The notes beneath the pieces are model-generated. The model did not search any database. It worked only from the letters and a program-made list of their open reading frames with translations, and was not told the origin of the DNA. Shown in pieces: positions 28,470 through 49,455 of a stretch of DNA of 64,000 nt (the stretch's first letter is position 1; every line of letters starts with the position of its first letter). This DNA comes from Pseudomonadota bacterium (GTDB lineage: Bacteria > Bdellovibrionota > UBA1018 > CAIMNF01). The stretch is taken from contig JAIXOQ010000017.1 in the NCBI GenBank assembly GCA_027486675.1, positions 123,986 through 187,985 on the forward strand, read 5' to 3'. The position numbers and the translations under genes were made by a program.

Positions 28470-29208
28470 TCGACTGCCGCAAAGGCTCTCAATCCATGAT
28501 ACTTTCTTAGTCCGTATGGATAGCTTTGAATCTGGCCTTCAGCGCCTTTCCGTTCAGTTTGTTCCGTTCCTTTTTGCCGTGATCATTCATGAGTTTGGGC
28601 ATGGATGGATGGCCAAACGTTTTGGGGACACCACTGCCGAGGACGCGGGACGCCTCACCCTAAACCCCATCCCACACATAGACATTTTAGGGACCATTTT
28701 TTTCCCTGTGATCAACATGGTTTCTGGAATGAGCGTCATGTTCGGTTGGGCAAAGCCAGTGCCCATCGATCCGCGCCGTTTTAGCAGCGCACGAAAAGGC
28801 CTTTTCTTTGTCTCTCTGGCCGGGCCTGGATTTAATTTCCTGGCCTCACTTGTCTCAGCCATAGGCCTCCTGCTGTGGATCAAGTTCACGCCTCAGGACC
28901 ATTATCTCTTTGAGCCCATCACCTTGATGTTAAACATCGGAGTCATCATTAATTTTGGCTTAGGGTTCTTTAATCTCATTCCGATTCCACCGTTAGACGG
29001 CAGCAAAATGTTAGAGAGCTTTCTTCCAAAACGGCTAGCACTTCGGTACGAGAGTTTTTCTAAGTATGGCTTCGTAATCCTTTTGCTTCTGCTTTTTACC
29101 GGGATGATTCGCTACATTGCAATTCCGGTCTACTTGGCCAGTGAAGCAACACTTCACTTTGCAAGCTTCATCACAGGCATCTCGCTTGAGAACTTAAAAC
29201 CCTTATGA
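28459..29208 (+). CDS. Site-2 protease family (peptidase M50) membrane metalloprotease
   Basis: HExxH in a TM helix (IIHEFGHGWMAKRFGD). Several hydrophobic segments and a second conserved Asp-containing helix. 249 aa. Confidence 0.7.
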   Translation: MDHSRLPQRLSIHDTFLVRMDSFESGLQRLSVQFVPFLFAVIIHEFGHGWMAKRFGDTTAEDAGRLTLNPIPHIDILGTIFFPVINMVSGMSVMFGWAKPVPIDPRRFSSARKGLFFVSLAGPGFNFLASLVSAIGLLLWIKFTPQDHYLFEPITLMLNIGVIINFGLGFFNLIPIPPLDGSKMLESFLPKRLALRYESFSKYGFVILLLLLFTGMIRYIAIPVYLASEATLHFASFITGISLENLKPL

Positions 29209-30200
29209 AACCTACAGTTTTATCGGCCGTTCAGCCCACCGAGGGCCTGCATCTTGGAAATTACTTAGGCGCTATCCGGAACTGGATTGCCTATCAGGAA
29301 GACCATGATTGTCTTTTTTTTGTAGTGGACCTTCATGCAATCACCGTTCGACAAGATCCGAAGGTTTTGCGTAGCAATATTGAGCGGGCCGTCGCAACGT
29401 ATTTGGCCTGCGGTTTAGATCCGCGCAAATCCACTCTGTTTGCTCAGTCGATGGTTCCTGAAATTCTGGAACTCTCTTGGGTCTTAACTTGCCACTCGTC
29501 CATGGGTGAATTGGCCCGAATGACTCAGTTTAAGGACAAAAGCAGCAAGCAAGGCGAAAACATTCCCACGGGCCTCTTTGTATATCCCGTCCTAATGGCC
29601 GCCGATATTCTGGCCTTCCGCACATCGCTTGTTCCAGTAGGTGATGACCAAAAGCAGCACGTCGAACTGACACGTGACCTTGCAGAGCGCATGAATAATG
29701 CTTACGGCAAAGATCTCTTCATCGTTCCAAAACCGATGCTGGGCACGACGGGCAGACGAGTCTTTAACCTCCTTGAGCCCGAAAATAAAATGTCCAAATC
29801 TGACCCTACTGGCCTAGGTGTGGTTTTCTTATCTGACGATGACAAAACCATCGAGAAGAAATTTAAGAGAGCCGTCACCGATTCCGGCACGAGCATCAAT
29901 CCAGAGGCCTTGAGCCAAGGACTTAAGAACTTGATCGAAATCCAAGCCGCCATACAGAATACATCGCTCGAAACGTTGGCCTCCCGCTATGCCGGCAAAC
30001 AATACGGAGTCCTTAAAGTTGAAACGGCCCAAGTTGTCATAGAGCACCTGCGCCCCATCCGCGATAAAACCGATGCCCTACTTCAAGACCGGGCTGCCCT
30101 GCACCAGATCCTGCGGGAGGGAGCCGAAAAAGCCAGGGAGAGGGCCTCGGCCCAAGTGAAAGAAGTTTACAAGCGGATCGGGTTTGTCGGAAGATCCTAA
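29205..30200 (+). CDS. trpS: Tryptophan--tRNA ligase
   Basis: Class I aaRS HIGH-like (PTEGLHLGNYLGAI) and KMSKS motifs. Length 331 aa. Confidence 0.9.
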   Translation: MKPTVLSAVQPTEGLHLGNYLGAIRNWIAYQEDHDCLFFVVDLHAITVRQDPKVLRSNIERAVATYLACGLDPRKSTLFAQSMVPEILELSWVLTCHSSMGELARMTQFKDKSSKQGENIPTGLFVYPVLMAADILAFRTSLVPVGDDQKQHVELTRDLAERMNNAYGKDLFIVPKPMLGTTGRRVFNLLEPENKMSKSDPTGLGVVFLSDDDKTIEKKFKRAVTDSGTSINPEALSQGLKNLIEIQAAIQNTSLETLASRYAGKQYGVLKVETAQVVIEHLRPIRDKTDALLQDRAALHQILREGAEKARERASAQVKEVYKRIGFVGRS

Positions 30201-33936: not shown

Positions 33937-34013
<77 letters not shown>

Positions 34014-34033
34014 AATTTCGGGATAGTAAAACA

Positions 34034-34066
34034 GGGACAAGGCACAAAACCTTGTCCTTTTTTTAT
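34034..34066 (+). terminator. Rho-independent terminator downstream of tRNA-fMet
   Basis: GGGACAAGG-cacaaaa-CCTTGTCC stem-loop followed by TTTTTTT. Confidence 0.7.
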
Positions 34067-34534
34067 TTCTGCACCTCAGATCAAAAATACAAACAAAACA
34101 GCCGTAAAAACCACGGAATCCGAATGATCCTGCTGCTGGCTCAGCAGGCAGTCGAAGTCACTGAAGGTCGCGGTTCGGGCAACTAGAAGTATGCAAAATG
34201 GATGCATTTGGATGCCGAGCCGAAATTTCATCATTTCTTCGGATGCACGATTCTGAAATGCATCCAAGCGTTCTACAAGAATCTGATTTTCAAGGCGAAT
34301 TTACTCGCCTCCTAGGCTCCGGCACTGCTTGGTCCTAGGGGGCCCGAAGAGAAAAGTGGGCAACGTTTCGGAGGCCAAGCGAATTCCAACTTTCGAACAA
34401 ATCGTTCCATTTTTTTCCCTTTCTGCTCTGAATCCTAGTTAGTTCAAATGCGCTACAAAAAGGGCTGGGGCAGGTCGGCGGATATAAAAGATGTTTAGTT
34501 ACACGTAATCTGATCCAAAATACCATGACACCAT

Positions 34535-35779
34535 ATGAAAACAGAGAACCTGATCATTCCATCCGAAATCCCATGGGAAGAAATTAAAGGCAAAGCTCTG
34601 GAGGAATTGTTGTATTGGCTTCTCGATTCCATGGGAGCAAAAGATCTTGAGTGGCGAATCGGCGGAAAAGGAAATGGGACAGCTGACCAGGGCAGGGATC
34701 TTGAGTGTGTCTTCTACACGCAGACTCCAGAAGGGGAATTACTTCGGGAATCCTGGTGGATAGAATCTAAGGGACGTGTCGGCAAGGTAGAACCAGACGA
34801 AGTCAAAGGCGTAGTGCTGAATGTCGCAGGAAAAGCTTCAGTTGATGTTCTGGTGATAGCGACAAATTCAAATTTTTCGAACCCAACGCGCGATTGGGTG
34901 AAAGAATGGCAAAGAGGTCATCCGAGACCAATCATCAAACTCTGGGAGCGCACAGAGCTCGAAAAATTCTGCTCAAAATTCCCTACAGCTGTAATGCGAC
35001 TCTACTCAAAAGCACTAAGCACTCAAGGAAGATTGGAGGTGGTGAGATCAAGATTCTGGAATTACGCGTTATTAGCTGACGCGCCAACTCTCGAAGCACT
35101 CTGGAGTAAACATGAGGTACTAATTTCACCTGAGGCCCTCGCGGCGCTGATTACATCTGAGGCCGGAAATGGAAGTTTATCTAAGCGTCCCTGGGGCATG
35201 CGAGTAGATCCAGATACTTTGGGAAAAACTCTTATAAATTCACTCTTAAACTTAATATTTCTAGTCTTTCGCGCGGGGGACATCGGAGTAAGGCAGGAGC
35301 CATTTATAAAAGCATTATCTTACCAAGTTCTATGTGCGATGGACCGCTTGGGAAGTGATTATGTTGCAACATTACTCAAGGAATGGAATTTTGATGACCG
35401 AGCATTGCCACAAGAAATCAAAGAATTAATTTTGGGCCCAGTTATAGATACCTTAGTCACCGAAATTCGCGATGTTTGCACCAGTGATTGTTCACGGGTA
35501 ATGACCAGTCCATTGGAGTTATCGGAGCGAGATATAGAACTATACTGGTTTCGATTGTCGACGAATGGTTCTAACGAAAACAAAAAAGAGAAGGTGCTTA
35601 GTATGGAATCCCTTAAAACACCTTGCAAAGTAGGTTTTTGCGTAAGCGAGGAAGTTGGCTGTCCAGTGAATGGCGATAAGTACCGGAAGCGCGACACCTC
35701 AAAACTGCTTTTTGACATAAAAAAAATTGTTGACTTCAGAAAATCAGAAATAACCAAAAGTAGCCCATCATTGCCCTAA
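34535..35779 (+). CDS. Mrr-like restriction-endonuclease-domain protein with approx. 270 aa C-terminal region of unknown function
   Basis: N-terminal approx. 130 aa match the Mrr catalytic PD-(D/E)xK pattern (GKGNGTADQGRDLECVF...WWIESKGRVGKVEPDEVKGVV...VLVIATNSNFS). No motif recognised in the remainder. Confidence 0.5.
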   Translation: MKTENLIIPSEIPWEEIKGKALEELLYWLLDSMGAKDLEWRIGGKGNGTADQGRDLECVFYTQTPEGELLRESWWIESKGRVGKVEPDEVKGVVLNVAGKASVDVLVIATNSNFSNPTRDWVKEWQRGHPRPIIKLWERTELEKFCSKFPTAVMRLYSKALSTQGRLEVVRSRFWNYALLADAPTLEALWSKHEVLISPEALAALITSEAGNGSLSKRPWGMRVDPDTLGKTLINSLLNLIFLVFRAGDIGVRQEPFIKALSYQVLCAMDRLGSDYVATLLKEWNFDDRALPQEIKELILGPVIDTLVTEIRDVCTSDCSRVMTSPLELSERDIELYWFRLSTNGSNENKKEKVLSMESLKTPCKVGFCVSEEVGCPVNGDKYRKRDTSKLLFDIKKIVDFRKSEITKSSPSLP

Positions 35780-35959
35780 AATCTATTTGCCACCTTCAAA
35801 TCAAACACCACTTGCTCAATCGCCACTAATGGGCACCTCCGACGCCGGCCACTGAACCATTCCGAAGAAGGAGTCATGTCCTTTGTCGATCGATAGAACC
35901 GTCCCCGAAGACATCGCGGTCGCAATCCTAGCCGTCGCTTCCGGCTCATGTGTTGGGCC

Positions 35960-37576
35960 CTATTTCGCACGCTTCAATGAGACTGGCACTGCAGAGGCGC
36001 AATGAGCGAATGCTTTCGCTCGCTCTCTGAAGTCTGAAGACCTCGTGAAAGAGACATTACTTTTAACATCGCCTTTGTTCTTCATCGCCTGAATGGCATT
36101 TGCAATGAGGTTATAGTCCTGCGATACGCAGATCCGCGAATATCGCTTTTCGTCCGGCGTTACACCAGCACAGTTCTCAAAATATGAGACAGAAACATCC
36201 AAAATCGAATAATGCTGTTTATTCAAATTATAGACTTGGGTTTCAAGTGAAATGAGCGCTTCATTCTGTGCCAACTGCGTTCGGTAATACTCGATATCGC
36301 TCTTTTGGCTCTCAAGCTTCATGTCACCAATCGCTTCCAGAATCAAAACGTCGAGCTTAGCCATCCTTAAAGAACTCGACTCTTCTTCGGAGACCTTGCC
36401 ATTGCGACGCTGCTTTTCTTGCAACTCCGAGATGAAAAGTTTGGCTTGAGCAATCTGGTCTATCCTCTCTTTCTCGGCAAACTCGCGCTCAAGCTGTTGA
36501 CGCTCCTTCTCTGCGTCGCCCGTATACTCGCGAATCAAGAGTTCGTTTGAGGAAAGCGGAGCTTTCATAGCTATAGCATCGCCGCGACCTATGGACTTTG
36601 CCTCCGATTGCATCTGTTGCACAATCGTCGGCTTATAAAGGCGTTGGTCGCGATCGTGTTCACGAATCTTAGCTTTGAGTCTCTCAGCCTCAATTTTGTA
36701 TTCTTTAATCTTTTTTTCAGTCGACGCTAGCGCTTTGTCTCGCTGAGTAACAATATTTTGCTTAATCTCTTCACGGATCTTTTGCGCCGTGTCATAGACG
36801 GCGCGGTAAGTGCCGCCTTTCACTGAGTGAACCCCAAGACTACTTAGCATAGCCAGATCGCTCTTTTCGACTGAGAAGCCCTTGCCAAGTGCGTCGAGTA
36901 CGTTCAGGGATAGGCTAACGGAGGTTCCCACAGTGATGGTTTCATTTTCAGGTGTCGTCGACCACGCACAAACAAATTTCTGTTGGTCGGGAGAAAGCTT
37001 ACTGACCCAGCGGGTAAAGACCCCACTAAAGCAGGCATTGCTAAAGATCCTCAGAAATACTCCCCGTTCAGCAGCGCGGATCGCAAGATTCTCTAGTTCA
37101 TTGGTCGTTGTGCAGTCTTCACGAAATGTTCGAACGCCGCCCTTGGAGCCACCGTGGGTGTCAAAAAAAACATCGAGGATACTTCCCTCCTCCTGCGTCT
37201 CCACGGCGTTGTGCAAAGGATTCCAAAATTCTTGTACTTCGCGATTCCCTTCGACGATTCCAAATTCGATTGCCTCCCGAACTTGTTCTGCTTTTATGAG
37301 GTCAAAGTAGTGCGATGCAATTGCGCCCGTATCAAATGAGATGAAGTTGCCACCAGTTCGACTTGCATACTTTAGTGCAGCAGCACCAAATTCGTTTCGG
37401 GATTGGATCTCGCTTTTATCTGCCGCGCCTTGATTTAGAAAAACGAAGTGGGCCGGGGCCGCAGTTGCAACACACCCGACCATCAGAACGGAGGTAAGAA
37501 AAATAGTACCGACTGGCGACATATGCCGCATTATAGTTGACATAAATGGTAATGTAAAGATGATTTTTGTGTCCAT
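35960..37576 (-). CDS. Secreted/lipoprotein clan-CD (caspase/legumain-like) peptidase-domain protein with long C-terminal coiled coil
   Basis: Signal peptide with lipobox-like LMVGC. His-Gly ... Ala-Cys dyad context (FFDTHGGSKGG ... LRIFSNACFSGVF) as in C13/C14 peptidases. C-terminal half is heptad-rich (EKKIKEYKIEAERLKAKIREHD...). Confidence 0.45.
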   Translation of the reverse strand: MDTKIIFTLPFMSTIMRHMSPVGTIFLTSVLMVGCVATAAPAHFVFLNQGAADKSEIQSRNEFGAAALKYASRTGGNFISFDTGAIASHYFDLIKAEQVREAIEFGIVEGNREVQEFWNPLHNAVETQEEGSILDVFFDTHGGSKGGVRTFREDCTTTNELENLAIRAAERGVFLRIFSNACFSGVFTRWVSKLSPDQQKFVCAWSTTPENETITVGTSVSLSLNVLDALGKGFSVEKSDLAMLSSLGVHSVKGGTYRAVYDTAQKIREEIKQNIVTQRDKALASTEKKIKEYKIEAERLKAKIREHDRDQRLYKPTIVQQMQSEAKSIGRGDAIAMKAPLSSNELLIREYTGDAEKERQQLEREFAEKERIDQIAQAKLFISELQEKQRRNGKVSEEESSSLRMAKLDVLILEAIGDMKLESQKSDIEYYRTQLAQNEALISLETQVYNLNKQHYSILDVSVSYFENCAGVTPDEKRYSRICVSQDYNLIANAIQAMKNKGDVKSNVSFTRSSDFRERAKAFAHCASAVPVSLKRAK

Positions 37577-37719
37577 ACGCCAAAACGACTATAGAGACTG
37601 CTTAGGTGTGCTGCGCGCAAAAGGCCTCCACGGGACTTGCATCCTGCTGCAGTTCACGGAGTAGCCCCCCCTAATGCCGCCGACGGATTTAAAGGCTTTG
37701 AGCCAAACCTGTACCCCTA

Positions 37720-37766
37720 AAAATGGGAGACTTTGTCTCCCATGACAGACAGAGTCTCCCATTTTT
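37720..37766. promoter_or_regulatory. Three copies of a 9-bp motif ATGGGAGAC (one forward, two inverted) upstream of the wHTH gene; candidate operator
   Basis: ATGGGAGAC at 37723..37731. GTCTCCCAT at 37735..37743 (a perfect palindrome with the first copy across a 3-nt spacer). A further GTCTCCCAT at 37754..37762. Confidence 0.4.
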
Positions 37767-37928
37767 GACAGATTGGTCGGGTATTTACTTGGGGAGGCAA
37801 TTTTAGAATTCCCCAATCCTTTTCAAGAGATACGGCCATTTTCGGTCTAACGGCCTTTTTTCACCAAAGCTGGCACGCCTTTGCATCTCAGTAGTTCAGA
37901 AACACAAACCGAGAAAAGGAGAGGCTTA

Positions 37929-38747
37929 ATGAATCAGAAGCCAGGAATACAGGACCGGATGATCGAGGAAAAAGATGCGACCCCGCAATACAACAGCGGC
38001 CAACCGATGCCGCCTGATACATATGACGCAATATTGTTCACAGCGAAAACAGGATTTATCAGCGCTGGGATCTGGAGGCGATACTTCGGATCAGGAAATG
38101 ACAGATCAAAACGGCGAACCCTACGCCGCCTCTGCGAACGCAGCTACTTCCGCCGACATCACAGCGGGCAAGCGAAGAATGTATTTTTACTTGGAGCAGA
38201 AAGCGTCCAATGGCTTAAGTCTCGCGGATACGGATTTGTGAGAAGCGCCTATCTTGCACAGTTGGATCACGATCTCATCCTAGCGGAATCAGTTCTTCGT
38301 CTTGAACTCAAAGGATACTGCGACAGTTGGTGGACAGAAGCTGAACTGAAAATCGGCAGTGGCCTGGCCTATGCTGTGAAACCTGCGACCGGTTCACAGA
38401 AGCATCCAGACCTTCTGATTACTTTGAGCACGGCTGGCGGAGATCAGAAAGTAGCCATCGAACTTGAGCTCACTCAGAAGAGTGCTCAGCGCTACCAAGA
38501 CACGGTGAATGCCTACGATCGGATGGAAGACCTCTCAAAAGTTATTTTTGTGGCCAGGACGGACTCCGGGATGTTTGCAATAAAAAGAGCGTTCCAGACG
38601 CACGGCTCGGCGCGCCTCCGTGCGAAGGTGCTTTTTGCAGAGTTATTGGATTGGCACGTAGACCCGGGCAGAGCACCTCTCAGCGGGATGGACGGCACGA
38701 CATCGATCGCTGAAATCTGCAAGAACCAGAGGCTGACAGCGGCATGA
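37929..38747 (+). CDS. Hypothetical protein: N-terminal winged-helix-like region plus PD-(D/E)xK-like core (replication-relaxation-like)
   Basis: ORF from 37881. The ATG at 37929 has a strong RBS (AAAAGGAGAGG). Putative nuclease motif HPDLLITLS...VAIELELTQKS (D...E-x-E...K). Confidence 0.4.
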   Translation: MNQKPGIQDRMIEEKDATPQYNSGQPMPPDTYDAILFTAKTGFISAGIWRRYFGSGNDRSKRRTLRRLCERSYFRRHHSGQAKNVFLLGAESVQWLKSRGYGFVRSAYLAQLDHDLILAESVLRLELKGYCDSWWTEAELKIGSGLAYAVKPATGSQKHPDLLITLSTAGGDQKVAIELELTQKSAQRYQDTVNAYDRMEDLSKVIFVARTDSGMFAIKRAFQTHGSARLRAKVLFAELLDWHVDPGRAPLSGMDGTTSIAEICKNQRLTAA

Positions 38748-39001
38748 AAAAGGTGACTCGTTCAAAAGTCCTCCAGGAGTCATCTATTTGTTACTCAGCC
38801 AAGTAGACCAACTGCGAATAACCACTACGTAACTCTTCAATATTTTCCCCTCCGCCCGGACCGGTCATTTCCTCTGTTCGTTTTTGACCACTCCCCCCCA
38901 ACGATGTTGAGAGAGAGTGGTCAAAAACTAGGAAATAAACATAAGGGCGGAGGGAGAGGTAGAAACAAAAAAACAAGTAAGAATGAAAGGTAGGCAAAGC
39001 G

Positions 39002-39406
39002 ATGGAGAAAGAAGAAAAAACAAAAACAAAGACAGAAATCCAAAACCAACACCAAAAGACAAAGAAGCAAGCCGAAGAACAGTTCCGCGTGGTGATCTCT
39101 AGAGAAGCGAACGCGGAACTGGAGCGACTCGTGGCTCGTATTCTGGATGGTCATGATGCTGTCACTGTGTCGAAGTCTGATATCGGCAATTACATCTTTT
39201 GTAATCTGAACAAGCACATTTCAGATGCCGATATCCAGACGATTCGAGTCACGCACTTCGATGAGCGAAAGGTCCTACAAGGTCTGATGCGAAGGTCTAG
39301 CCAAGAGGATGAAATTCCTAGCGATCTAAAAAAGATCATTCGCGACTTCTATGGGATAGGGGAAAAAGATAAAAAACGACCTTCTAGACGGGATGCGGAG
39401 CCCTAG
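39002..39406 (+). CDS. Hypothetical protein (134 aa), Lys/Thr-rich N-terminus
   Basis: ORF with a plausible RBS. No recognisable domain. Lies between the wHTH gene and xis. Confidence 0.35.
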   Translation: MEKEEKTKTKTEIQNQHQKTKKQAEEQFRVVISREANAELERLVARILDGHDAVTVSKSDIGNYIFCNLNKHISDADIQTIRVTHFDERKVLQGLMRRSSQEDEIPSDLKKIIRDFYGIGEKDKKRPSRRDAEP

Positions 39407-39523
39407 ATTGATTCCCAACTAAATCGCTATGTTCATTGACCTTCAGATCTTAGCGATCCTTCCATGCACCTCGTTCCGAAGTTACGCCCCTCTCATTGTC
39501 GCCTGAACCCAACTTGGAGTAAT

Positions 39524-39787
39524 ATGGACAAAGAACTGATAAACAGTTCGTCGCTCTCTGAAAAACAGAATTCTTGTAAAACACATGATGAAGTTGTTTC
39601 GTTAGAAGTCAGCAAATGGCTCACATCTAGCGAAGCCGCCCTTTACCTTCGGATCTCGAACTCCAGCTTAAAAATGATGGTGTATCGAGGTTCAGTTCGA
39701 GTTTGGAAGCTAGGAAGGCGAAATCGCTTTCTACGCGAAGATCTCGATCGACTCATTCGGGTACCTTCAAACAAAAAGGAGACCTAG
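39524..39787 (+). CDS. Excisionase-like HTH DNA-binding protein
   Basis: ORF from 39464. The ATG at 39524 has an RBS (GGAGT). HTH_17/excisionase-like segment WLTSSEAALYLRISNSSLKMMVYRGSVRVWKLGRRNRFLREDLDRLI. Stop is immediately followed by the int start. Confidence 0.55.
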   Translation: MDKELINSSSLSEKQNSCKTHDEVVSLEVSKWLTSSEAALYLRISNSSLKMMVYRGSVRVWKLGRRNRFLREDLDRLIRVPSNKKET

Positions 39788-41041
39788 ATGGCACAGAAGG
39801 ATTTTATAAAGGACGGAATACAGAAACTCATCATCTACATCGCAGTAAACTGTAAGGAGTACCCAGGAGGAAAGATCCAAAGGAAAAAGACCGTCACCGG
39901 TATTGCCAAAGGATCGCCGAAGGCGAACGCAATCGAGCGAGAAATGATCCGAGAAACGGAACGCGAGGCTGCGCAAAGAGAAGCCGTTGGCACCAACTGG
40001 GAAGCACTTGTAGGATTGTACGAACTTTGGGCTCGCGACGAAGAAAAGAACGGTCGCTGGGTTCAAAGCAAGCAAACCCTCTTTGATGCTGTACGCTCTT
40101 TACACAATTGGACCAATGATTGGTACAAACTCCCTGCCGCAAACATTACGGCTACCGATGTCACCAAGCTATTTCACAGAATGAGAGCTGCGGGTGTATC
40201 GGAAACCACAATTGGCAAAATGCGGGGGGATATTCGGAAAGTCTTTGAATTTGGTTTGCTGTTTGATCACATTCGCGGTGTCCGTAATAACCCGACAAAT
40301 GGGGTGACGATAAAAAGTCGAAAGCGGATGAGGACAGAGATTCTCAGCGAAGATGAAATCAAAAAGCTACTTTCCTATGCAAAGTCCTACGAACCAAGCT
40401 GGCACCCAATTTATGCCTTTGCCGTGTACACAGGGTGTCGTAACGGGGAATTGTACTCGCTTAAATGGAGCGATATCGATTTTCAGGAACGACTGATTAC
40501 GGTTCAACGGTCCTACAACAAAATGTTTAACGAAGAGAAATGCACGAAGACCGGCGAGTGGCGCCGAGTCTCCATCTGCGACCCTCTTTGGGAAATTGTT
40601 TTAGAACTGAAACGAAACCATGATCACGATCTTGAACGTGGAGCCTGTAAGTATCCGGGCTACGTTCTTCCGAGACCGGGTGTATGGCAGAACGGAGAAC
40701 AGGCGAGAAAGCTTCGAGAGTTTTGTGAAGAAATCGGAATCACACCGATCTGCTTCCACACTCTTAGGGCTTGTTTTGCGACTGAACTTCTAAGGCGCGG
40801 TGTAGACGTTCCTAGCGTGATGCGGGTTGGAGGCTGGAAGAGCCTAAAAACAATGATGCATTACGTTCGTTTATCCGGTATGGCAGACAAAGGGATCACT
40901 GATCCTTTGGACTACCGATCGGAAGACCCCCAAGCGACCAATCGCAAGCTTTTGTCTGCGGTTGGAGAATCGTTTCGATCAGGGGGCGGAATGGGTGCAG
41001 AGATTATCCCACTGCCGACTCGGAAACTTCCGCATCGGTAA
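39788..41041 (+). CDS. Tyrosine-type integrase (phage integrase family)
   Basis: SAM-like N-terminal domain. Catalytic R...HxLR...Y region (FHTLRACFATELLRRGVDVPSVMRVGGWKSLKTMMHYVRL). RBS AAGGAG upstream. Confidence 0.85.
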   Translation: MAQKDFIKDGIQKLIIYIAVNCKEYPGGKIQRKKTVTGIAKGSPKANAIEREMIRETEREAAQREAVGTNWEALVGLYELWARDEEKNGRWVQSKQTLFDAVRSLHNWTNDWYKLPAANITATDVTKLFHRMRAAGVSETTIGKMRGDIRKVFEFGLLFDHIRGVRNNPTNGVTIKSRKRMRTEILSEDEIKKLLSYAKSYEPSWHPIYAFAVYTGCRNGELYSLKWSDIDFQERLITVQRSYNKMFNEEKCTKTGEWRRVSICDPLWEIVLELKRNHDHDLERGACKYPGYVLPRPGVWQNGEQARKLREFCEEIGITPICFHTLRACFATELLRRGVDVPSVMRVGGWKSLKTMMHYVRLSGMADKGITDPLDYRSEDPQATNRKLLSAVGESFRSGGGMGAEIIPLPTRKLPHR

Positions 41042-41297
41042 CTGGGGGTTACAAGAAGGACACTGCATTAAAAGTGCTGTTCGCTGTAAGTTCTTGAATT
41101 TATGAGCCCCGACCAGAGGCAACCAAGACACAAAGAAAGGAGTCTCACAAAAGTTGGAGTACTTTTTTTGTGTCTTGGTTGGGTAGATTTTGGAACCTCG
41201 AAAACGAAGGTTTTCAAGCGAAGGCAGGAGCCGAAGCGCACTTTAGTCTTGAGGCGCGTGCACCGAGAGGTCACGAGCCGGATGCGACCGATAAATC

Positions 41298-42587
41298 TTA
41301 CCCCTGGCGCGGGGTCGCAAAACTCTGTTGATCCCACTCTGCTATCCACTCCAGAAGCACTTTCTCAAAGAGTTCTATTCCCTGCTTTAATCCGCTCGAA
41401 GTGCACGGTCCGAAGTCTCCAGGCTTACAACGAGGAAAAATATATCTATGGGCGTCTGCCTTCCAGTTCTTCTGCTCCGCAAAATAGCGCCGCACGCTCG
41501 GTCGATCAAAGGCAAAGACTTCGTCATAATCATCTTCGTGACCGTAATGGAAAACCACATCCACATAGCCAGTCCGTACATCCGGATCAAGCCTAGGGTT
41601 ATCCAGAACTGCATTCACTTTCCCTTGTAGCCGGACACGTTCCCCAGGCTTAAGTGATTCGATCTTTCGGCGAATCTGGGTGATGTGCTGAACATCGTGG
41701 GCCGGTACGCCCGCGCCGAACATAGTGCCATTGTCAATCTCTACCGTGCTCGTGTCTTCCGGGAAGCCGATAAAATGAACGTCAGAAGCAATTACCGTTC
41801 GAGCGATGTCCTCCATGGACTGATTCAGAAACGTTGGCACGAGAAACGTTCCGGGCAGGACTCCACTCAGTTCACTTTCGTATAATTCTATCGAAGAAGA
41901 CGAAAGCTCATGACGGCGGTAATCGAAGAATGACTCAGAAATGAAACCAGCACCTCTCCTCTCGTAGAGCGCATAGTCGGATGCCGAATTTTTGTCCTTA
42001 ATCACTTTGAAGTAATATGAGTACGAAGAGGGACCTCTCAAAATAAGAAACTCTATTTCCGGATCGCCTATTTTTCCACGGATCCTAAAATGGTCAAAAA
42101 AGTCTGGCTGATCCCAATTGAACGAAGAGCCCATGACGATAGAAAAATCAACTGCCTTCCTGATCAGCGAGATTTCCTGCTCGGAAAGCAATCTAAACGA
42201 GGACTCGAAAGTGCGATTCGCGGAAGCAAACAGAGTGGCCCAGGCTCTAGCACGGATGGAGATATTCGGTGAATTGAGTGCTAGCAGCGAGAAGTCTCCG
42301 TAAGCGCTCTTGAGCCGGCCCCAAGTATCGAGTCCGATTGGAGACGAGATTTGTGCGTTCACATTCTTTACTTCGGCAGCCTCCAAAAACGCGTTGTCGG
42401 AAACGGCTTCATCAACAAGAATACGGCAAAGCCATGTGGGCATTGCCCATGCGCTATCGCTGAAGCATACAAAGAAGACGATGAGACATATTCCGCGGGA
42501 CCTTGGCTTCACAACGGTAGGAAACATACTAAACATTACCATTTGGGTCAAATAATCACCGACCCCATCTCTTGCAACTTGGGCCAT
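41298..42587 (-). CDS. Hypothetical protein (429 aa)
   Basis: Long ORF with an N-terminal hydrophobic segment. No confidently recognised domain. Confidence 0.35.
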   Translation of the reverse strand: MAQVARDGVGDYLTQMVMFSMFPTVVKPRSRGICLIVFFVCFSDSAWAMPTWLCRILVDEAVSDNAFLEAAEVKNVNAQISSPIGLDTWGRLKSAYGDFSLLALNSPNISIRARAWATLFASANRTFESSFRLLSEQEISLIRKAVDFSIVMGSSFNWDQPDFFDHFRIRGKIGDPEIEFLILRGPSSYSYYFKVIKDKNSASDYALYERRGAGFISESFFDYRRHELSSSSIELYESELSGVLPGTFLVPTFLNQSMEDIARTVIASDVHFIGFPEDTSTVEIDNGTMFGAGVPAHDVQHITQIRRKIESLKPGERVRLQGKVNAVLDNPRLDPDVRTGYVDVVFHYGHEDDYDEVFAFDRPSVRRYFAEQKNWKADAHRYIFPRCKPGDFGPCTSSGLKQGIELFEKVLLEWIAEWDQQSFATPRQG

Positions 42588-42758
42588 TTAGATCAGCTCA
42601 CTTACGAATCTCGAAAGGCGATCTAACCGTTTCGAAGAAGGAGTCATGCCTCATGTCACTCGACAAACTCATTCCGTTAGCAACTACTTCTGCGGTCCAG
42701 GCCGAGGCTCCGTACGTTAGGCAGCAGACGAGTACTTTCATCGTCGCAAGTTCATGGT

Positions 42759-43259
42759 CTAAGGATTTTTCTCTAGCGTCATTAAAAAACCCAGTGCTTC
42801 ATTAATCGTAAATTCACTAAAAACTCGGATTCCATTTGACTCTAGTAGCGCCGTCGTTACTCCTTGCCCACTCTTTTTACCGCCAGCAAAGGTACCGTCG
42901 TAAATGGACTGACTGCCGCAAGAAGGGCTGTCTTCTTTCAGTATCGCAATCTTGATTCTATGACTGAGAGCCAAGGTGAGGGCATTCTGCGCTCCCCGAA
43001 TGTATCCATCAGTAACATCAGTGCCGGTATCCTCGATTATTTTTTATGAATCATTTAAAACTGAAGCACCATCTCCGCCGCCAACGATTTCGGCAGGTGG
43101 CCGGGGCGTCGCAAATCCTGCAGAAACCTCCGGACAAACCATCACAAGACGCCCTTCATTTCTCCAAAGATCAAGTGTCGAATTGGCATAGAGCGCATGC
43201 CCACCGTGGTACTTAACTTTTTCTCCAAGCAAACAAGCGCTGATTAGAATTTTCTCCAT
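42759..43259 (-). pseudogene. DUF523-family gene interrupted by an in-frame TAA stop
   Basis: Track ORFs 43044..43259 (MEKILISACLLGEKVKYHGG...CPEVSAGFATPRPPAEIVGGGDGASVLNDS*) and 42759..42974 (TTG start; ...ILKEDSPSCGSQSIYDGTFAGGKKSGQGVTTALLESNGIRVF) are in the same frame. Together they cover a complete DUF523 fold, separated only by TAA at 43044..43046 (VLNDS*KIIEDTGTDVTDGY). Confidence 0.55.
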
Positions 43260-43476
43260 CTGATATTATTATACCGACTTCGAGGCAAGTGGATGAAGAG
43301 TATTGAGCCACCCGCACAAGTTACGCCAACAGGAGAAAGCGGAATCACCCAAGTCATCGCTCGCACTCATTTTCAAAAAAAAACCAAGAATTAGCTGTTC
43401 ATCATTGTCGAACCAATCCTGAACAGGCAGCTTAGTTCTTCACGAACCTCACTGGAAAAAGAAGGGCACTCAGGAA

Positions 43477-43884
43477 ATGAATCGATTCATCAATACCCTA
43501 ATGGTGGGCTTCGCACTTGTTCTCACGCAGGTAGCCACGGCCATAACCCTAAAAGACATGGTGAAGTGCGAAGAGTTCCCAGATCCTCCGTCAGGACTCA
43601 TTCAATCGATCCGCGAATGGGATACACTGCCTCCCCATCAACGCATCAACGCTGCCTTCTATCATGATGCGAAACACCACGTGATCAAACGCAGCTTTGA
43701 TGTGGTGCGAAACCCAAACGGATTGCCCAGTGACTACAAGTCCATTTTTCTGGAGGCTGCTAAACGCATTCAAGAAGACTTGCCTGAGGTCTACTCAACA
43801 TATTACCCCCTCATCGGTGAACCATTTCTTTCTGAAATCGAAGTGGCAACAACTCCGACCGGCGAATTGCTTGCGTATCAGTAG
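43477..43884 (+). CDS. Small secreted hypothetical protein
   Basis: Signal peptide (MNRFINTLMVGFALVLTQVATA). 135 aa. No recognised domain. Confidence 0.4.
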   Translation: MNRFINTLMVGFALVLTQVATAITLKDMVKCEEFPDPPSGLIQSIREWDTLPPHQRINAAFYHDAKHHVIKRSFDVVRNPNGLPSDYKSIFLEAAKRIQEDLPEVYSTYYPLIGEPFLSEIEVATTPTGELLAYQ

Positions 43885-44153
43885 ATCTTTAAACAAGTGG
43901 GCGGTGATGCTGGGCGTCCACTCGAAAAGAGATTTGCAACTCGCCAGCTTGCGTATCAAGCAGGGCTCGATACCGAAGCAGACGTAGAATGGAAGATTAA
44001 TTTCGAGATCAACCATGATGGAACCATTTACCACCAAAAGAATGCGCACTGGGAGTGGACTGGGCATTAGGAGAATCTGAAGTTAGATTTGCTGAGACTG
44101 GGATGAAACCGAAGATTGAAATCCAAACTCAAAGCAGTGATAACCTCTAGTCT

Positions 44154-44699
44154 ATGAAGGCCAAACTTGACGAGCTACGCAAAAGGCTAGACCACTTCAG
44201 CGCTCGGAGTGATTTAACGGTAGAACAGATTGCATGGGGCCATTGTATCGAAGAAGCAATACTCGCGGGCGAGCAAGGAAATTATAGCGTCGGTGCATTA
44301 GTAACGGATTCTAAATTCCGTATTCTCGGGCGCGGACGGAACGCGGTCTTTAAACCAAAATTCCGCTCCGAGGCGCATGCTGAGATGATTGCGATTTCAG
44401 CGGTTGAAACGGCTGCATCCGTAGTAGATAAGAATAATCTGATTTTGTTTTCGACCCTTGAGCCGTGCCTCATGTGCACAGCGAGGATTTTGCTATCGGG
44501 TATTGGCCAAGCTGTCTTCCTAAAACGCGATCCCACTGCTGGCATCTGCGATCGGCTTCACATGTTACCGCCCAACTATCAGGATTTAGCCAAACGGGTT
44601 CAGTTCCACGAATACAATAATGATCTGGAACTCAAAGAGATCTCTTCCGAGCTTTACAAAATTGGCGAAGAGCTTTGGTCACGGGAGTACGGGCTCTAA
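44154..44699 (+). CDS. Nucleoside/tRNA-adenosine (TadA-like) deaminase, CDA family
   Basis: Zinc-binding motifs HAEMIAI and PCLMCTARI (H-A-E ... P-C-x2-C). 181 aa. Confidence 0.7.
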   Translation: MKAKLDELRKRLDHFSARSDLTVEQIAWGHCIEEAILAGEQGNYSVGALVTDSKFRILGRGRNAVFKPKFRSEAHAEMIAISAVETAASVVDKNNLILFSTLEPCLMCTARILLSGIGQAVFLKRDPTAGICDRLHMLPPNYQDLAKRVQFHEYNNDLELKEISSELYKIGEELWSREYGL

Positions 44700-44769
44700 A
44701 AGTTACAGTCATCACCGACGTACTTATACTAAGTCTCCTAATCTTTGATTCAGTGTATTTCTGAAATCT

Positions 44770-45408
44770 CTATTTGGCGTTTAATGCAGTTTTGAGTTCC
44801 TGCATTACCTCTTTTTTGAGCGCCAGTAGTTCATCAAGTCCAGGAAGCTTCACAAATGCGAGCGAGAAGATCAGTTCATTTCGACCCAATGACTCTTCTT
44901 TTAGTTTGAAATCTACTTGGCAGGCTTTCCTGCCGTATTCTGGATCCTCACTCATTTTGGCGTAATGATCGATCCGCTCTTGCTCAAACGCGTTGAGACT
45001 ATAGTCGGTTTCTTCCAAGGAGTAGAGATTCTTAGCGTAACGAGTTTTCAACTTCTGAGTAAATGGCATCAGATTCCGTAGAATCTTCTCTGCCTGAGCA
45101 ATGTTTGGTATGCCTCGAAGTTTGAATTCGCGGTCCGATTTCTCAGGATCGACGTAATCCCTACGCATGGGATCGCCGTATTGAATAATGAACAATTTGT
45201 CCTCTGAGATTGCGCTTCCTTGAACTGAATCACTCACCCAAGCCTCCTTTGGCAAAAACATGCAAAGCACGACAAACACTACACGAGCAATTCTCATCAA
45301 CTGATCTTCAACCACTGATCGGAAAGCGCAATAACTGACTTCAGTTCCATGATCATGCTTTGTAGCATATTGGATTCTGCCAGCCATCCTCAGCATGCCC
45401 TCGGACAA
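44770..45408 (-). CDS. Hypothetical protein (212 aa)
   Basis: Long ORF with an N-terminal hydrophobic stretch. No recognised domain. Confidence 0.35.
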   Translation of the reverse strand: MSEGMLRMAGRIQYATKHDHGTEVSYCAFRSVVEDQLMRIARVVFVVLCMFLPKEAWVSDSVQGSAISEDKLFIIQYGDPMRRDYVDPEKSDREFKLRGIPNIAQAEKILRNLMPFTQKLKTRYAKNLYSLEETDYSLNAFEQERIDHYAKMSEDPEYGRKACQVDFKLKEESLGRNELIFSLAFVKLPGLDELLALKKEVMQELKTALNAK

Positions 45409-45593
45409 CCCAGAAATGGGCTAGGGGCCAAACCATCCTTAAGATGTGTTAGACATTTGGCGCCATTGCATGAATCGAAGGCGAGAACGTTTTAGTTCTT
45501 CTTCACCGCGAAAAAGAAGTAGCCATTTTCTAACGGGCGCGCAGGATCATTCCCGTCTCTTCGGAACACAGAGACCTTGCCCTCGTGAACTGA

Positions 45594-45603
45594 GGGGGGG
45601 GGG
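45594..45603. repeat. Homopolymeric G10 tract in the intergenic region upstream of the OMP-like gene
   Basis: tgaGGGGGGGGGGcaaacg read directly. About 190 bp upstream of the 45790 start. Confidence 0.8.
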
Positions 45604-45789
45604 CAAACGATCATTGTCTCTGGCCCAGTCTTTCGAATTCCTGTGACCAGCGATCCATCTATCAAGCGGCTGGTCCGTCAGCTTCACCCCCTTGCATTCA
45701 CTGGGTTCGGGATGCGAGCACAGAAAAACGGATTTATAGAAGAATACTGAGCTGGATTCCAAATCAGCTTTATGATCTTCTGAAAATGC

Positions 45790-46707
45790 ATGAAACACAC
45801 CCCGAAGAGACCCACTCAAAGTCGTGTACATATTTTTTTCGTCTTAGTAGTTATCATTTTAGTATCGGTCGGGACAGCCCAGGTTGCCTCTGCGCAGCTC
45901 AGGGATCGGGCAGCGCTTTGGGTCGAAGCCCTGCCTTCAGCTGACTTGGAATCGATCAACGGGGCGTCGAGTCCAACTCTGCAAGCTCAAGCCGCTGAAG
46001 TTTATGCTGCCGAAAGATTCTTTCTAGATGAAGACGGAGCTGACCTCCTTAATGTTGCTCTGTCCTATCGCAATAGCTTTATCCAAACCAACGGCGCCCC
46101 TGGCCTTGCCGGCGTGCGCAACGTCGGCTGGATAGTGCCAATCGTTACCTGGCTTCATTCCATCAATGAGCGGGACACAATCATCATCCAGGGGCGCCCA
46201 GGAGTTTTTACCGATTACACTCGCATCAACGGGGATCACTTTCGCATGGAGGGTTCTGTTTTGTGGGATCGTATCTGGAACGATCGGTGGACCCTTGGAG
46301 TTGGATTTGCAAGAACAAGTAATTTCGGCAAAGTCCTCTACCTTCCTCTGTTTCACGCGCTCGGCATAATCGGAAAAGACCTTTGGCTTGATTTGCTATT
46401 ACCGGGACGCGGCGAACTTTATTTTCTGCCCTCTAAAGATTGGGAGCTTGGCGTCATGTTTAGTATCACTGGATCCCAGTACGCAATTGGGGAGCAGGCT
46501 CTAGGCTTTGATACGCTTCAATATGCGAATGTACTCATGGGGCCAACCTTACGTTATAGATTGAGCGGAAGTGCATATCTGGGGCTCGAAGCGGGTTATA
46601 CAGTGATGCGACGTGCAATTACCCTCGACAGCGATACTGGAGCGCAGTTCAGCTATGAGCCTGGTCGCACATTCTTTACTCGTTTAGGTCTACAACTTCG
46701 ATTCTAA
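45790..46707 (+). CDS. Putative outer-membrane beta-barrel protein
   Basis: Signal peptide (FFVLVVIILVSVGTAQVASA). Alternating amphipathic strands. C-terminal ...LGLQLRF (terminal Phe). Confidence 0.45.
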   Translation: MKHTPKRPTQSRVHIFFVLVVIILVSVGTAQVASAQLRDRAALWVEALPSADLESINGASSPTLQAQAAEVYAAERFFLDEDGADLLNVALSYRNSFIQTNGAPGLAGVRNVGWIVPIVTWLHSINERDTIIIQGRPGVFTDYTRINGDHFRMEGSVLWDRIWNDRWTLGVGFARTSNFGKVLYLPLFHALGIIGKDLWLDLLLPGRGELYFLPSKDWELGVMFSITGSQYAIGEQALGFDTLQYANVLMGPTLRYRLSGSAYLGLEAGYTVMRRAITLDSDTGAQFSYEPGRTFFTRLGLQLRF

Positions 46708-46735
46708 GAAAACCTCGAATGAAAGGCACAATCGT

Positions 46736-47521
46736 ATGAAAATTTTTCTCAGTTTACTCTCCTTGACGTTCATTCTGTCAGCACATGCGGCACCAGCAAA
46801 AAAATCAGCGGTAGCGTCCGCTCCAACAGCCCCATCCAATTCTTTTGCAAAAGTTGATGCCGACCTCCAGGCGAGCCGCTTCACTGAGGCGCGTGCTGAA
46901 ATTGAGGCACAGCTCAATAAAGACCCAAGTAACGCGGAATGGGTGTGGCGCTTATCGCGTGCAAAGGTATTTCAAGGTGACACATTAAAGTCAGGTTCAA
47001 AGGAACAAGAACAGCTTTATATTGAATCTCTTTCGGACTCGGAAAAGGCAATCCAATTGAAGCCAGATCTTGCAATGGCGCATGTACGTCGCGCCATATC
47101 CGCTGGAAAGATCGCGTTGTTTAAGGGGATCATCGAATCCAAAGATTTAGCCCTTGAGGTCAAGAAGTCTTGTGAAACTGCGTTAGCTAAAGCCTCGACT
47201 CTGGACGCAAATGCTAAGGCTCTTGCTCATTACGTGTTGGGCCGGTTGCATGTGAAGCTGACAGATACTCCACTGGTATTGAGAAAGCCCATGGGACTAG
47301 GCTGGGCAAATTTGCAAGAAGCAGAGACAAACTTGGCGGAAGCAATCAAGGTGTATCCAAACTGGGTGCAGATTCGATTGGAATACGGCAAGGCGTTGAA
47401 GAAGCTAAAAAAATCATCTGAAGCGAAAGAGCAGCTTCAACAGGCGATCAATCTGCCGTCTTCTGAGCCGGGTGACGAAGAGAAGAAATCAGAGGCGAAG
47501 GAACTTCTGTCTCAGTTCTAA
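46736..47521 (+). CDS. Secreted TPR-like repeat protein
   Basis: Signal peptide (IFLSLLSLTFILSAHA). Helical repeat content with TPR-like spacing. 261 aa. Confidence 0.4.
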   Translation: MKIFLSLLSLTFILSAHAAPAKKSAVASAPTAPSNSFAKVDADLQASRFTEARAEIEAQLNKDPSNAEWVWRLSRAKVFQGDTLKSGSKEQEQLYIESLSDSEKAIQLKPDLAMAHVRRAISAGKIALFKGIIESKDLALEVKKSCETALAKASTLDANAKALAHYVLGRLHVKLTDTPLVLRKPMGLGWANLQEAETNLAEAIKVYPNWVQIRLEYGKALKKLKKSSEAKEQLQQAINLPSSEPGDEEKKSEAKELLSQF

Positions 47522-47545
47522 ACACTTACAAACTGCACCAGCAAA

Positions 47546-47555
47546 GGGGGGGGGG
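47546..47555. repeat. Second homopolymeric G10 tract, immediately after the TPR-like gene
   Basis: caaaGGGGGGGGGGctcat read directly. Lies between convergent genes. Confidence 0.8.
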
Positions 47556-47567
47556 CTCATTCGTAGC

Positions 47568-48524
47568 TCAATCCACCCTATTTCGTTTTTCCCCTCGAAG
47601 AAACGCAAGTAGGTTTTCAGTCAATTCCGCGAGGAGCCTCGTTCTTGATTCAAATGTGGCCCACGCAATATGAGGCGTAACCAAACAATTCTTTGCGCGC
47701 AACAGGGGATTACCATCGCGCGGTGGTTCGAATGATAGGACGTCTAGGGCCGCGCCCGCGATCCTGCCTTCATTTAAAGCAGCCGCAAGATCTTCCTCAG
47801 CAACTAAAGCGCCCCGACTGACGTTTAGAAAGAAGGCTGAAGGCCTCATGAGTGCAATTAGGTCTTTATTAACAAATTCTTGATTCGTGGAAGTCAAAGG
47901 ACAATGCAAAGAAACAATATCCGAGTCTGAAAAACATTGTTTTAAACTGACAAAGCGAACGCCATCCATAGCATCACGTTCAGGATGGGTGTGACTTGCG
48001 ATGACCTGCATCCCGAATGCCAATGCAATTCTGGCAACAGCCTTTCCTATCTGCCCGAGTCCTACAATTCCCAAAGTCTTTCCGGACAACTCGGTCAAGG
48101 CCGCTAGTGAATAGCTAAAGTCTGCCGTTCTACACCAGTCCATGGATCGCGTACTTGCAGCATGAATCCCCACATGATTCGTGAGCTCAAGGAGCAAAGC
48201 GAAAGTATGTTGGGCAGCAGAAGCAGTGCTATATCTCGGAACATTTGTGACTGCGATGCCACTTCTGCGCGCAGCATTCACATCAATGCAGTTAAATCCG
48301 GTCGCGGATACACCAATGTATTTCAGTTTACTTGCGTCATGAAGAGTTTGCTCGTTGAGCATTACCTTATTGGTAATCACAATGTCCGCATCCTCAATCC
48401 TGGTAAGAATTTCGGAATCTGATGTGTGCTCATAGGCGCTAATGGCACCTAAAGTCCGAAGAGGGTCCCAAGAGTCTTCAGGAAGCGAGATTGTTCTTCG
48501 GTCAAGAACTACGATTTTCAGCAT
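47568..48524 (-). CDS. D-isomer-specific 2-hydroxyacid dehydrogenase (glycerate/phosphoglycerate DH-like)
   Basis: ORF extends to 48644, but the family-typical start is the internal Met (MLKIVVLD) at 48524. NAD-binding GxGxxG (GIVGLGQIGKAVARIAL). Catalytic R/E/H region (HIAWAT). Confidence 0.8.
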   Translation of the reverse strand: MLKIVVLDRRTISLPEDSWDPLRTLGAISAYEHTSDSEILTRIEDADIVITNKVMLNEQTLHDASKLKYIGVSATGFNCIDVNAARRSGIAVTNVPRYSTASAAQHTFALLLELTNHVGIHAASTRSMDWCRTADFSYSLAALTELSGKTLGIVGLGQIGKAVARIALAFGMQVIASHTHPERDAMDGVRFVSLKQCFSDSDIVSLHCPLTSTNQEFVNKDLIALMRPSAFFLNVSRGALVAEEDLAAALNEGRIAGAALDVLSFEPPRDGNPLLRAKNCLVTPHIAWATFESRTRLLAELTENLLAFLRGEKRNRVD

Positions 48525-48708
48525 GGATAATATTAATCCTAAAATGCGGAGCCCAAGGAGGAAACGCCAATCATCTCGTCCTTGTTGTGCAATCCAGTTT
48601 CGATCCTTCGTGACCCCTAACAAAAATAGCCCCACCGTTTCCACGATGGGGCTATGAGATTTTCAGATACGGCGCAGTCTCTCTGGAGTGCTGCTAAAGA
48701 AGGAGAGC

Positions 48709-49455
48709 CTAAACGTTTCCGAATCCACCATCGGCAAGGATGTCAGACCCTGCAATATAGCTCGAATCATCGCTTGCTAGAAAGAGCGCTACTTTCGCCA
48801 TCTCTGTAGCGCTACCGAAACGATGTGCGGGAACGATAGACTTCATGTGCTCTGAGAATCCAGCCACTTGATCTGCAGGCATCCCCATTTTTCCATAGAT
48901 TGGCGTCTCAATAGGACCTGGAGACAGGACGTTGAAACGTACATTTTCTACAGGAATCTCTGCAGTCCATGAGCGTGCAAGACTGCGAACAGCTGCTTTT
49001 GTAGCTGCATAAACAGACGCGCCAGCCATGCCTTTTACGCTTACGGTCGAAGCATTTAAAACTACCGTACTTCCTTTGTTGAGCAGCGGAAGAGCCTGAG
49101 CCACAGTAAAATAGAGACCTCGGACGTTCGTATTGAACTGATTGTCAAAGAAATCTTCCGTCACTTCAGCAGTTGGAGTAAACAGAGCGACGCCTGCATT
49201 CGCAAAGAGAACATCTAACCCGCCGTAGGTGGTCTTAATATGTGCATAAAGTGCCGTCAGTTGCTTTGGCTGACTAACGTCGGTTTGAACCACATCAAAC
49301 TGTCCACCGAGCTCTGTTTTGGCGACTTTAAAAGTCTCTGGCGATCTTGCTGTGATAATGACTTGGGCGCCTTCTGCCTTAAACATCTTTGCTGTTGCGA
49401 GCCCAATACCTGAATTTCCACCTGTTACTAATGCGATCTTACCTTTAAGTTTCAT
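48709..49455 (-). CDS. SDR-family oxidoreductase
   Basis: KIALVTGGNSGIGLATA, NAG, YAATKAA motifs. 248 aa. Confidence 0.8.
   Translation of the reverse strand: MKLKGKIALVTGGNSGIGLATAKMFKAEGAQVIITARSPETFKVAKTELGGQFDVVQTDVSQPKQLTALYAHIKTTYGGLDVLFANAGVALFTPTAEVTEDFFDNQFNTNVRGLYFTVAQALPLLNKGSTVVLNASTVSVKGMAGASVYAATKAAVRSLARSWTAEIPVENVRFNVLSPGPIETPIYGKMGMPADQVAGFSEHMKSIVPAHRFGSATEMAKVALFLASDDSSYIAGSDILADGGFGNV

Follow-up and report, generated by a model that had tools for sequence, protein, structure and literature searches.

Two identical G10 tracts bracket a predicted surface-protein operon in a Bdellovibrionota contig and may be the scar of a single duplication

Poly-G promoter tracts are known at tprE/G/J, tprL and tp0126 of Treponema pallidum and at porA/opc of Neisseria meningitidis (PMC7864442), and among insertion sequences, IS186 targets GGGG(N6/7)CCCC and duplicates only the 6-7 bp core (PMC5009759). 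Here we describe a locus in a 64,000-nt stretch of DNA (hereafter the window) from contig JAIXOQ010000017.1 of a Pseudomonadota bacterium (assembly GCA_027486675.1, placed by GTDB in the Bdellovibrionota), in which two runs of ten G residues (G10) stand on either side of the genes for a predicted outer-membrane protein (OMP) and a TPR protein. Any G10 run is a substrate for slipped-strand mispairing. Direct repeats can arise by target duplication (through staggered fill-in or template switching), by the single crossover of a circle, or by two independent origins, and homopolymer tailing with dG/dC, as used with terminal transferase in cDNA cloning, produces, on any one strand, a Gn run at one junction and a Cn run at the opposite one.

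The locus is a homopolymeric direct repeat that brackets a surface-protein operon, and it is both real and non-random. It consists of the following parts.

45593..45604, + strand: first copy of the direct repeat, A-G10-C (G10 at 45594-45603, tract 1), within the divergent intergenic region (400-490 nt) that separates the gene for the hypothetical protein h205 from the OMP gene
45604..45789, + strand: the 186 nt of DNA between tract 1 and the OMP start, presumed promoter and 5' untranslated region (UTR), which cannot be aligned with the upstream regions of relatives
45790..46707, + strand: gene for the OMP, a DUF6268-family outer-membrane beta-barrel-like protein of 305 aa with a signal peptide and the C-terminal end ...GLQLRF
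46736..47521, + strand: gene for a secreted TPR (RMD1-3-like) protein of 261 aa, with TPR matches and a signal peptide, beginning 28 nt past the OMP stop
47545..47556, + strand: second copy of the direct repeat, A-G10-C (G10 at 47546-47555, tract 2), in the 46-nt gap between the convergent stops of the TPR gene and a dehydrogenase gene

The repeat shared by the two sites is 12 nt long (AGGGGGGGGGGC, at 45593-45604 and 47545-47556), as the G10 runs agree in one extra base per side (A and C), and the two runs are spaced by 1,952 bp on the + strand. No similarity between the two contexts outside these 12 nt was found in a repeat search of the window, and no further copy of the 12-mer was found with 2 mismatches allowed. 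Tract 1 ends 186 nt before the OMP ATG (45790), while tract 2 begins 24 nt past the TPR stop (47521) and ends 12 nt short of the convergent dehydrogenase stop codon (47568-47570). The tracts enclose exactly one transcription unit, which is made up of 186 nt of upstream DNA, the OMP gene, the TPR gene and 24 nt after the TPR stop.

The first-pass annotation, made from the letters of the DNA, had described the two runs as identical and as rare, and had named a lack of length variation in reads, together with G10 tracts being common throughout the genome, as what would speak against its proposals. Both runs exist at the places it gave, are identical and lie on the + strand, and no other G or C run of the window exceeds a length of 7. 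The G runs of the window number 21 of length 5, two of length 6 and the two of length 10, and the C runs number 24 of length 5, four of length 6 and two of length 7. Under a first-order Markov model, about 0.043 G or C runs of at least 10 would be expected per window; as well, four G9 matches were observed against 0.16 expected, and none of 100 dinucleotide-preserving shuffles reached four. Lineage DNA amounting to 128 kb, namely the window with both tracts masked together with the related contigs L002, L003, L004 and L085 (64 kb), holds 417 G or C runs of length 4, 71 of length 5, 16 of length 6 and four of length 7, with no other run of at least 8, so that G10 tracts are not common in these 128 kb. 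Unrelated bacterial loci amounting to 874 kb likewise contain no G or C run above 7. Because of this rarity in the window, in lineage DNA and in unrelated loci, two G10 runs 1,952 bp apart on the same strand are not a product of chance.

The OMP-like and TPR-like character that the first-pass annotation had assigned to the bracketed genes is borne out by the DUF6268 and TPR matches and by signal peptides on both proteins. The OMP scores 37.2 bits against PF19783 (DUF6268; cut-off 22.8, E = 2e-9), its N-terminal hydrophobic segment terminates in ASA-Q, and its end ...GLQLRF is kept in three homologues; with the PF19783 score, the signal peptide and a C-terminal aromatic beta-signal, it carries all the hallmarks of the DUF6268 outer-membrane family. 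A distant homologue in a RefSeq plasmid record bears the PGAP name DUF6268 outer-membrane beta-barrel protein, and this was the only match in plasmid and phage collections. The AF2 model of the OMP (pLDDT 36) is too low in confidence to be of use.

The explanation that we favour, though tentatively, is that the two tracts are copies of one 12-bp direct repeat, which was duplicated upon insertion or relocation of the OMP-TPR cassette. Given the rarity of runs of at least 10, it is unlikely that two arose independently only 2 kb apart, and the shared strand, length and flanking A and C fit a duplication, while independent tracts need none of these. A single duplication would explain why there are two tracts, why they agree in strand and sequence, and why they stand at both borders of a relocated cassette. 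In such an event, the cassette, with its own 186-nt upstream region and an end 24 nt past the last stop, would have landed at a G tract that already existed, in a stretch prone to recombination beside an integrase gene, and the tract would have been doubled either by fill-in of a staggered break, comparable to target-site duplication, or by a template switch that was primed by microhomology in the G run. Each copy is now prone to slippage; as a secondary effect, the upstream one could influence how the OMP operon or the divergent gene is transcribed, whereas the downstream copy would have no regulatory target. We infer this single-event origin, and the mechanism outlined for it, with something less than confidence.

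Relatives of the locus provide the context for this explanation. Among 5.8 billion proteins, three OMP relatives were found, namely the protein itself, P0002 (72%) and P0003 (37%), and the TPR partner adjoins the OMP gene in every relative, which indicates that the OMP-TPR pair is a conserved functional unit of the lineage. No G or C runs longer than 7 occur at the OMP-TPR loci of relatives. The pair is also present on contig L002 (72-77% aa identity), where tracts are absent. There it directly adjoins RDD-SelO, its orientation relative to SelO is inverted, the genes on both sides differ from those in the window, and a hairpin follows the TPR gene; L002 and the window at 51.3-57.9 kb have in common SelO, an M24 peptidase, a 583-aa protein and GH1. 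When L002 and L003 are aligned with the window, homology is confined to coding sequence (window 45902-47497, 68.5%), and the intergenic regions cannot be aligned; because intergenic DNA is too diverged, the breakpoints cannot be placed more finely. In two more distant relatives (L003 8986-10882 and L004 540-2436), the TPR and DUF6268 genes are divergent, not tandem, and adjoin a flagellin gene and a dUTPase gene, so that the pairing is conserved there although the orientation is not.

A further relative, L085, which was found through SelO, is collinear with the window at the 3' end of the integrase gene (40832-41313) and again from the SDR stop codon (48708) onward. From that stop codon onward, the two are 83.6% identical in nucleotides, with an SDR 95.6% identical in aa and an SDR-TetR-SelO block in common. 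Between these anchors lies a stretch of different content, which is given below together with the two genes that flank the bracketed operon.

41314..48707, strand not applicable: variable stretch of 7.4 kb, in place of which L085 (499-7466) has 7.0 kb of unrelated genes between the same anchors
44770..45387, - strand: h205, left neighbour of the operon, a divergent hypothetical protein of 205 aa as called, with no Pfam match and no match in the loci fetched
47568..48524, - strand: right neighbour of the operon, a convergent D-2-hydroxyacid dehydrogenase of 318 aa, missing at the syntenic place in L085

In the window, the variable stretch contains h429, DUF523, h135, a deaminase, h205, tract 1, OMP, TPR, tract 2 and the dehydrogenase. 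The closest relatives of the dehydrogenase are 56-61% identical, with the best matches in Chitinophagaceae/Bacteroidota, and it is found in no relative of the lineage; its gene was probably acquired horizontally from outside the lineage. The whole stretch is a recombination hot spot beside the integrase, replaceable and mosaic. The comparison with L002 and L085, together with the Bacteroidota-like dehydrogenase, thus places the bracketed operon in a mosaic stretch, both borders of which are sites of gene-order change. The true start of h205 is likely the M at 45297, which is followed by a signal-peptide-like N-terminus, suggesting a small exported protein.

Some observations concern the stretch and the organism more generally. 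The deaminase (window 44154-44699, +, 181 aa) is of the cytidine/deoxycytidylate type and has weaker matches to toxin-type deaminase models (MafB19, Bd3614, SNAD4) and to an anti-phage dCTP deaminase model. Among 1.8 billion 50%-cluster representatives, none is more than 59% identical to the housekeeping TrpRS encoded at 29205-30200 (+); together with the small number of OMP homologues, this marks the source lineage as very poorly sampled. The window organism possesses the chemotaxis genes CheA/B/R and MCP, while flagellin and MutL are encoded in the relative L003.

Several points weigh against the duplication of one repeat by a moving cassette. The segment encodes only the DUF6268 and TPR genes, without a transposase, and terminal inverted repeats inside the tracts are absent, as the inner ends CAAACGATCATTG... 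and ...CTGCACCAGCAAA are not complementary. The segment does not appear foreign by GC, GC at third codon positions (GC3) or codon usage. No relative shares either flank and an empty site was not found: two JGI metagenome scans for an empty site or length variants, in which any tract length was allowed, gave no match to either flank pair, and a search of genome contigs with the dehydrogenase returned no empty site, nor the source genome itself. Moreover, in L002 as in the window, SelO is only a few kb from the pair, which may therefore have stayed in this neighbourhood throughout. A pre-existing G10 and an insertion exactly there are still required, and equal length with equal flanking bases would arise by chance in about 1 in 40 cases. 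We know of no documented bacterial mechanism that duplicates a homopolymer in this way, and no literature report of paired homopolymers flanking a cassette was found.

The strongest competitor, which we regard as possible but rather doubtful, is that two independently evolved contingency tracts are kept by selection, with slippage upstream altering the promoter of the OMP operon or that of the divergent gene for a secreted protein, and with the downstream tract as a second switch on some other target or a coincidence. A long G tract in the divergent promoter region of a surface-protein operon is the classic setting for such a switch, and the T. pallidum tract can coincide with the transcription start site, which would allow a long 5' UTR (PMC7864442). 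Two features close to tract 1 are also relevant here.

45563..45586, + strand: GGAAC-N16-CGT, a promoter motif like those of extracytoplasmic function (ECF) sigma factors, which ends 7 nt before tract 1
45550..45585, strand not applicable: a 36-nt stretch, 8-44 nt left of tract 1, that neither Logan contig covers as whole 31-mers

The ECF-like motif next to tract 1 may count in favour of a switch, but GGAAC-N16-CGT has five matches in the window against 2.9 expected, of which the one at tract 1 is the only intergenic one, and as the promoter of this region it is a weak lead. Scans for promoters and terminators gave no sigma-70-like promoter match and no terminator match at either tract, which leaves tract 1 without a sigma-70-like match nearby at its distance of 186 nt from the ATG. 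No Rfam matches were obtained even at E <= 1, and predicted folds around both tracts, on both strands, were no better than those of shuffles.

Two Logan contigs meet near tract 1. Contig L001 (run SRR16126844, window 45556-48780), which was built independently, is base-identical to the window with both G10 runs present, although it is possibly from the same reads, so that this agreement is no test of tract-length variation. Contigs L086 (38899-45579) and L001 overlap by 24 nt and not by k-1 = 30, which means that six 31-mers starting at 45550-45555 are missing from both. This break might mean that a 36-nt stretch occurs in more than one context at either side, that two strain differences lie close together, or that coverage failed very locally. 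It would be compatible with local heterogeneity; since Logan contigs hereabouts are 3-7 kb long, the chance probability of a break at most 45 nt from either tract is a few per cent. No second copy of the 36-mer was found in the window, the fetched loci or the viral contigs. As a separate observation, a 12-nt exact inverted match (GAATGATCCTGC) exists between 34122-34133 (about 110 nt after a tRNA-Met gene) and 45541-45552 (42 nt before tract 1), which is about chance level if the number of comparisons is allowed for.

A translational switch was tried and excluded by simulating G8-G12 at the tracts: no tract length in this range opens a long open reading frame (ORF), and the longest stop-to-stop frame through either tract, of 167 codons, joins no gene. 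Any switch must therefore be transcriptional, and since tract 2 lies between convergent stops, with no ORF or promoter at hand, a promoter switch there has nothing to act on. Further points against independent switches are that independent origins do not predict another such rare tract at a distance of 2 kb which matches the first in length, strand and flanking bases, that relatives keep the same operon without tracts, and that a MutL gene is present in the relative L003. No length variation was seen in the single data set available, where both assemblies read G10/G10. The origin of the tracts and their function are separate questions. The suggestion of the first-pass annotation that the upstream tract phase-varies the OMP is a possibility, and as an account of how the pair arose, the scar of a single event is favoured over independent contingency tracts, albeit provisionally.

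Considerably less probable is that the tracts act as transcriptional punctuation and insulate the oppositely oriented OMP-TPR unit from read-through by the - strand genes. In one version, the C10 in RNA just past the dehydrogenase stop would be a strong Rho-loading site; in another, G10 on the non-template strand of the operon would be an R-loop or roadblock element. Among activators of Rho, poly(C) is the most effective, and a non-template strand rich in G blocks transcription. Consistent with this, both tracts read C10 on the - strand, they stand exactly at the two ends of the operon on the same strand, the operon is the sole + strand unit amid - strand neighbours (SDR and dehydrogenase on one side, h205 on the other), and no hairpin terminator is found in the 46-nt convergent gap between the TPR and dehydrogenase stops. 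However, relatives manage without the tracts, a hypermutable sequence would be a fragile design for a terminator, the folds reveal nothing special, and we know of no example of a natural bare C10 serving as a rut site.

Slightly less probable again is that the 12-mers are crossover sites of a site-specific recombinase, for instance the integrase upstream, and that the operon is an excisable circular cassette. The integrase belongs to a region, window 33937-41313, that looks like an integrative mobilizable element.

33937-34013: tRNA-Met gene
34535-35779: gene for an Mrr-like endonuclease
37881-38747: gene for a MobC-like protein (weak match)
39002-39406: ORF of 134 aa
39524-39787: HTH_17 excisionase-like gene
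39788-41041: tyrosine integrase gene, with the integrase end conserved in L085

A complete cassette flanked by direct repeats, a tyrosine integrase (39788-41041) with an HTH_17 excisionase-like gene 4.5 kb upstream, and a downstream stretch that varies between relatives would suit a recombinase-driven origin. Against it, the segment does not include the integrase gene, the tracts lack flanking arms with dyad symmetry, neither a third site nor an array exists, and the segment replaced relative to L085 is 7.4 kb and not a 1.95-kb cassette. With regard to the element itself, no attachment (att) repeats were recognised, as the tRNA-Met 3' end does not recur and direct repeats of a convincing kind are absent. 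Directly downstream of the MobC-like gene lies a compound hairpin of about 108 nt (38847-38954), with outer arms CCCTCCGCCC/GGGCGGAGGG, inner arms TTTTTGACCACTC/GAGTGGTCAAAAA and a C7 run in the loop, which is a candidate for an origin of transfer (oriT) or an att structure; the Logan contig L086 starts at the final base of this C7 (38899).

A bolder proposal, which we consider improbable, is that the A-G10-C repeats are the working ends of a homopolymer-guided movement of the cassette, with no transposase or recombinase in the cassette itself. A fork or break stalled in a G run would switch template at another G run, or an RNA or single-stranded DNA copy would be primed there; the promoter-plus-operon unit would be copied before the return, and direct G tracts would be left on both sides. 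Such flanking tracts might later mediate excision, amplification and re-insertion.

A sequencing or assembly artefact, such as poly-G from two-colour chemistry or a chimeric join, is unlikely, even though the source is apparently a metagenome-assembled contig and one Logan contig break lies beside tract 1. The two assemblies are identical at every base across both tracts, poly-G artefacts from dark cycles are long and lie at read ends, and both flanking contexts are coherent genes with intact ends. In addition, 10 nt is shorter than any assembly k-mer, and thus reads must span each tract plus its unique flanks. Least probable of all is the tailing-type insertion of the 1.95-kb segment raised by the first-pass annotation, in which a terminal-transferase-like activity adds homopolymer tails that anneal at both junctions: homopolymers do stand exactly at both junctions, but symmetric 3' tailing would put Gn and Cn at opposite junctions of a given strand, while here both junctions read G10 on the + strand as a direct repeat, so that the proposal fails on geometry, only a strand-asymmetric RNA- or single-stranded-DNA-based variant is compatible with the orientation, and no polymerase or reverse-transcriptase gene lies nearby.

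If the pair of tracts is a duplication scar, it would be a clean natural example of a homopolymer used as a junction, or microhomology, for relocating a complete surface-protein operon, and it would reveal one route by which hypermutable tracts come to lie beside such genes, as a by-product of rearrangement and not via selection for switching. If the tracts are independent switches, poly-G promoter phase variation, which is known mainly from host-adapted pathogens, would be extended to an environmental lineage that is uncultivated, flagellated and deeply branching. In both cases, one locus from one sample is concerned, and its wider significance is modest for now.

Among known systems, dG/dC-tailed junctions share with this locus the homopolymers of about 10 nt at both ends of a fragment, and differ in that G10 stands here at both ends. 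Integron cassettes and att-flanked islets are alike in being small units, bounded on either side by one and the same short sequence, that lie in a variable region downstream of a tyrosine recombinase, whereas the operon here has its own promoter region and two genes, shows no dyad symmetry, no attC-like fold and no array, and lies 4.5 kb away from the recombinase in the same orientation. The tract pair does not display the features that define either homopolymer tailing or site-specific cassettes. IS186 and target-site duplications offer short identical direct repeats immediately outside the segment and a precedent for insertion at G/C runs; the direct repeats are present here, while a transposase and terminal inverted repeats are not, and the duplicated unit is itself a 10-nt homopolymer within a 12-nt repeat. 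The poly-G loci of T. pallidum and N. meningitidis have a mapped core promoter, demonstrated length variation and many tracts per genome, whereas here, as read from sequence alone, the tract stands 186 nt from the ATG, only two tracts occur in 128 kb, and the second is downstream of the operon. Tract 1 is abnormally long, as tracts of phase-variable loci are, but does not lie in an ORF. With those loci, it has in common a G run in the range of 8-12 that is intergenic and upstream of a predicted OMP gene in a genome of about 50% GC, and, because it is intergenic, any effect that it exerts would be on transcription.

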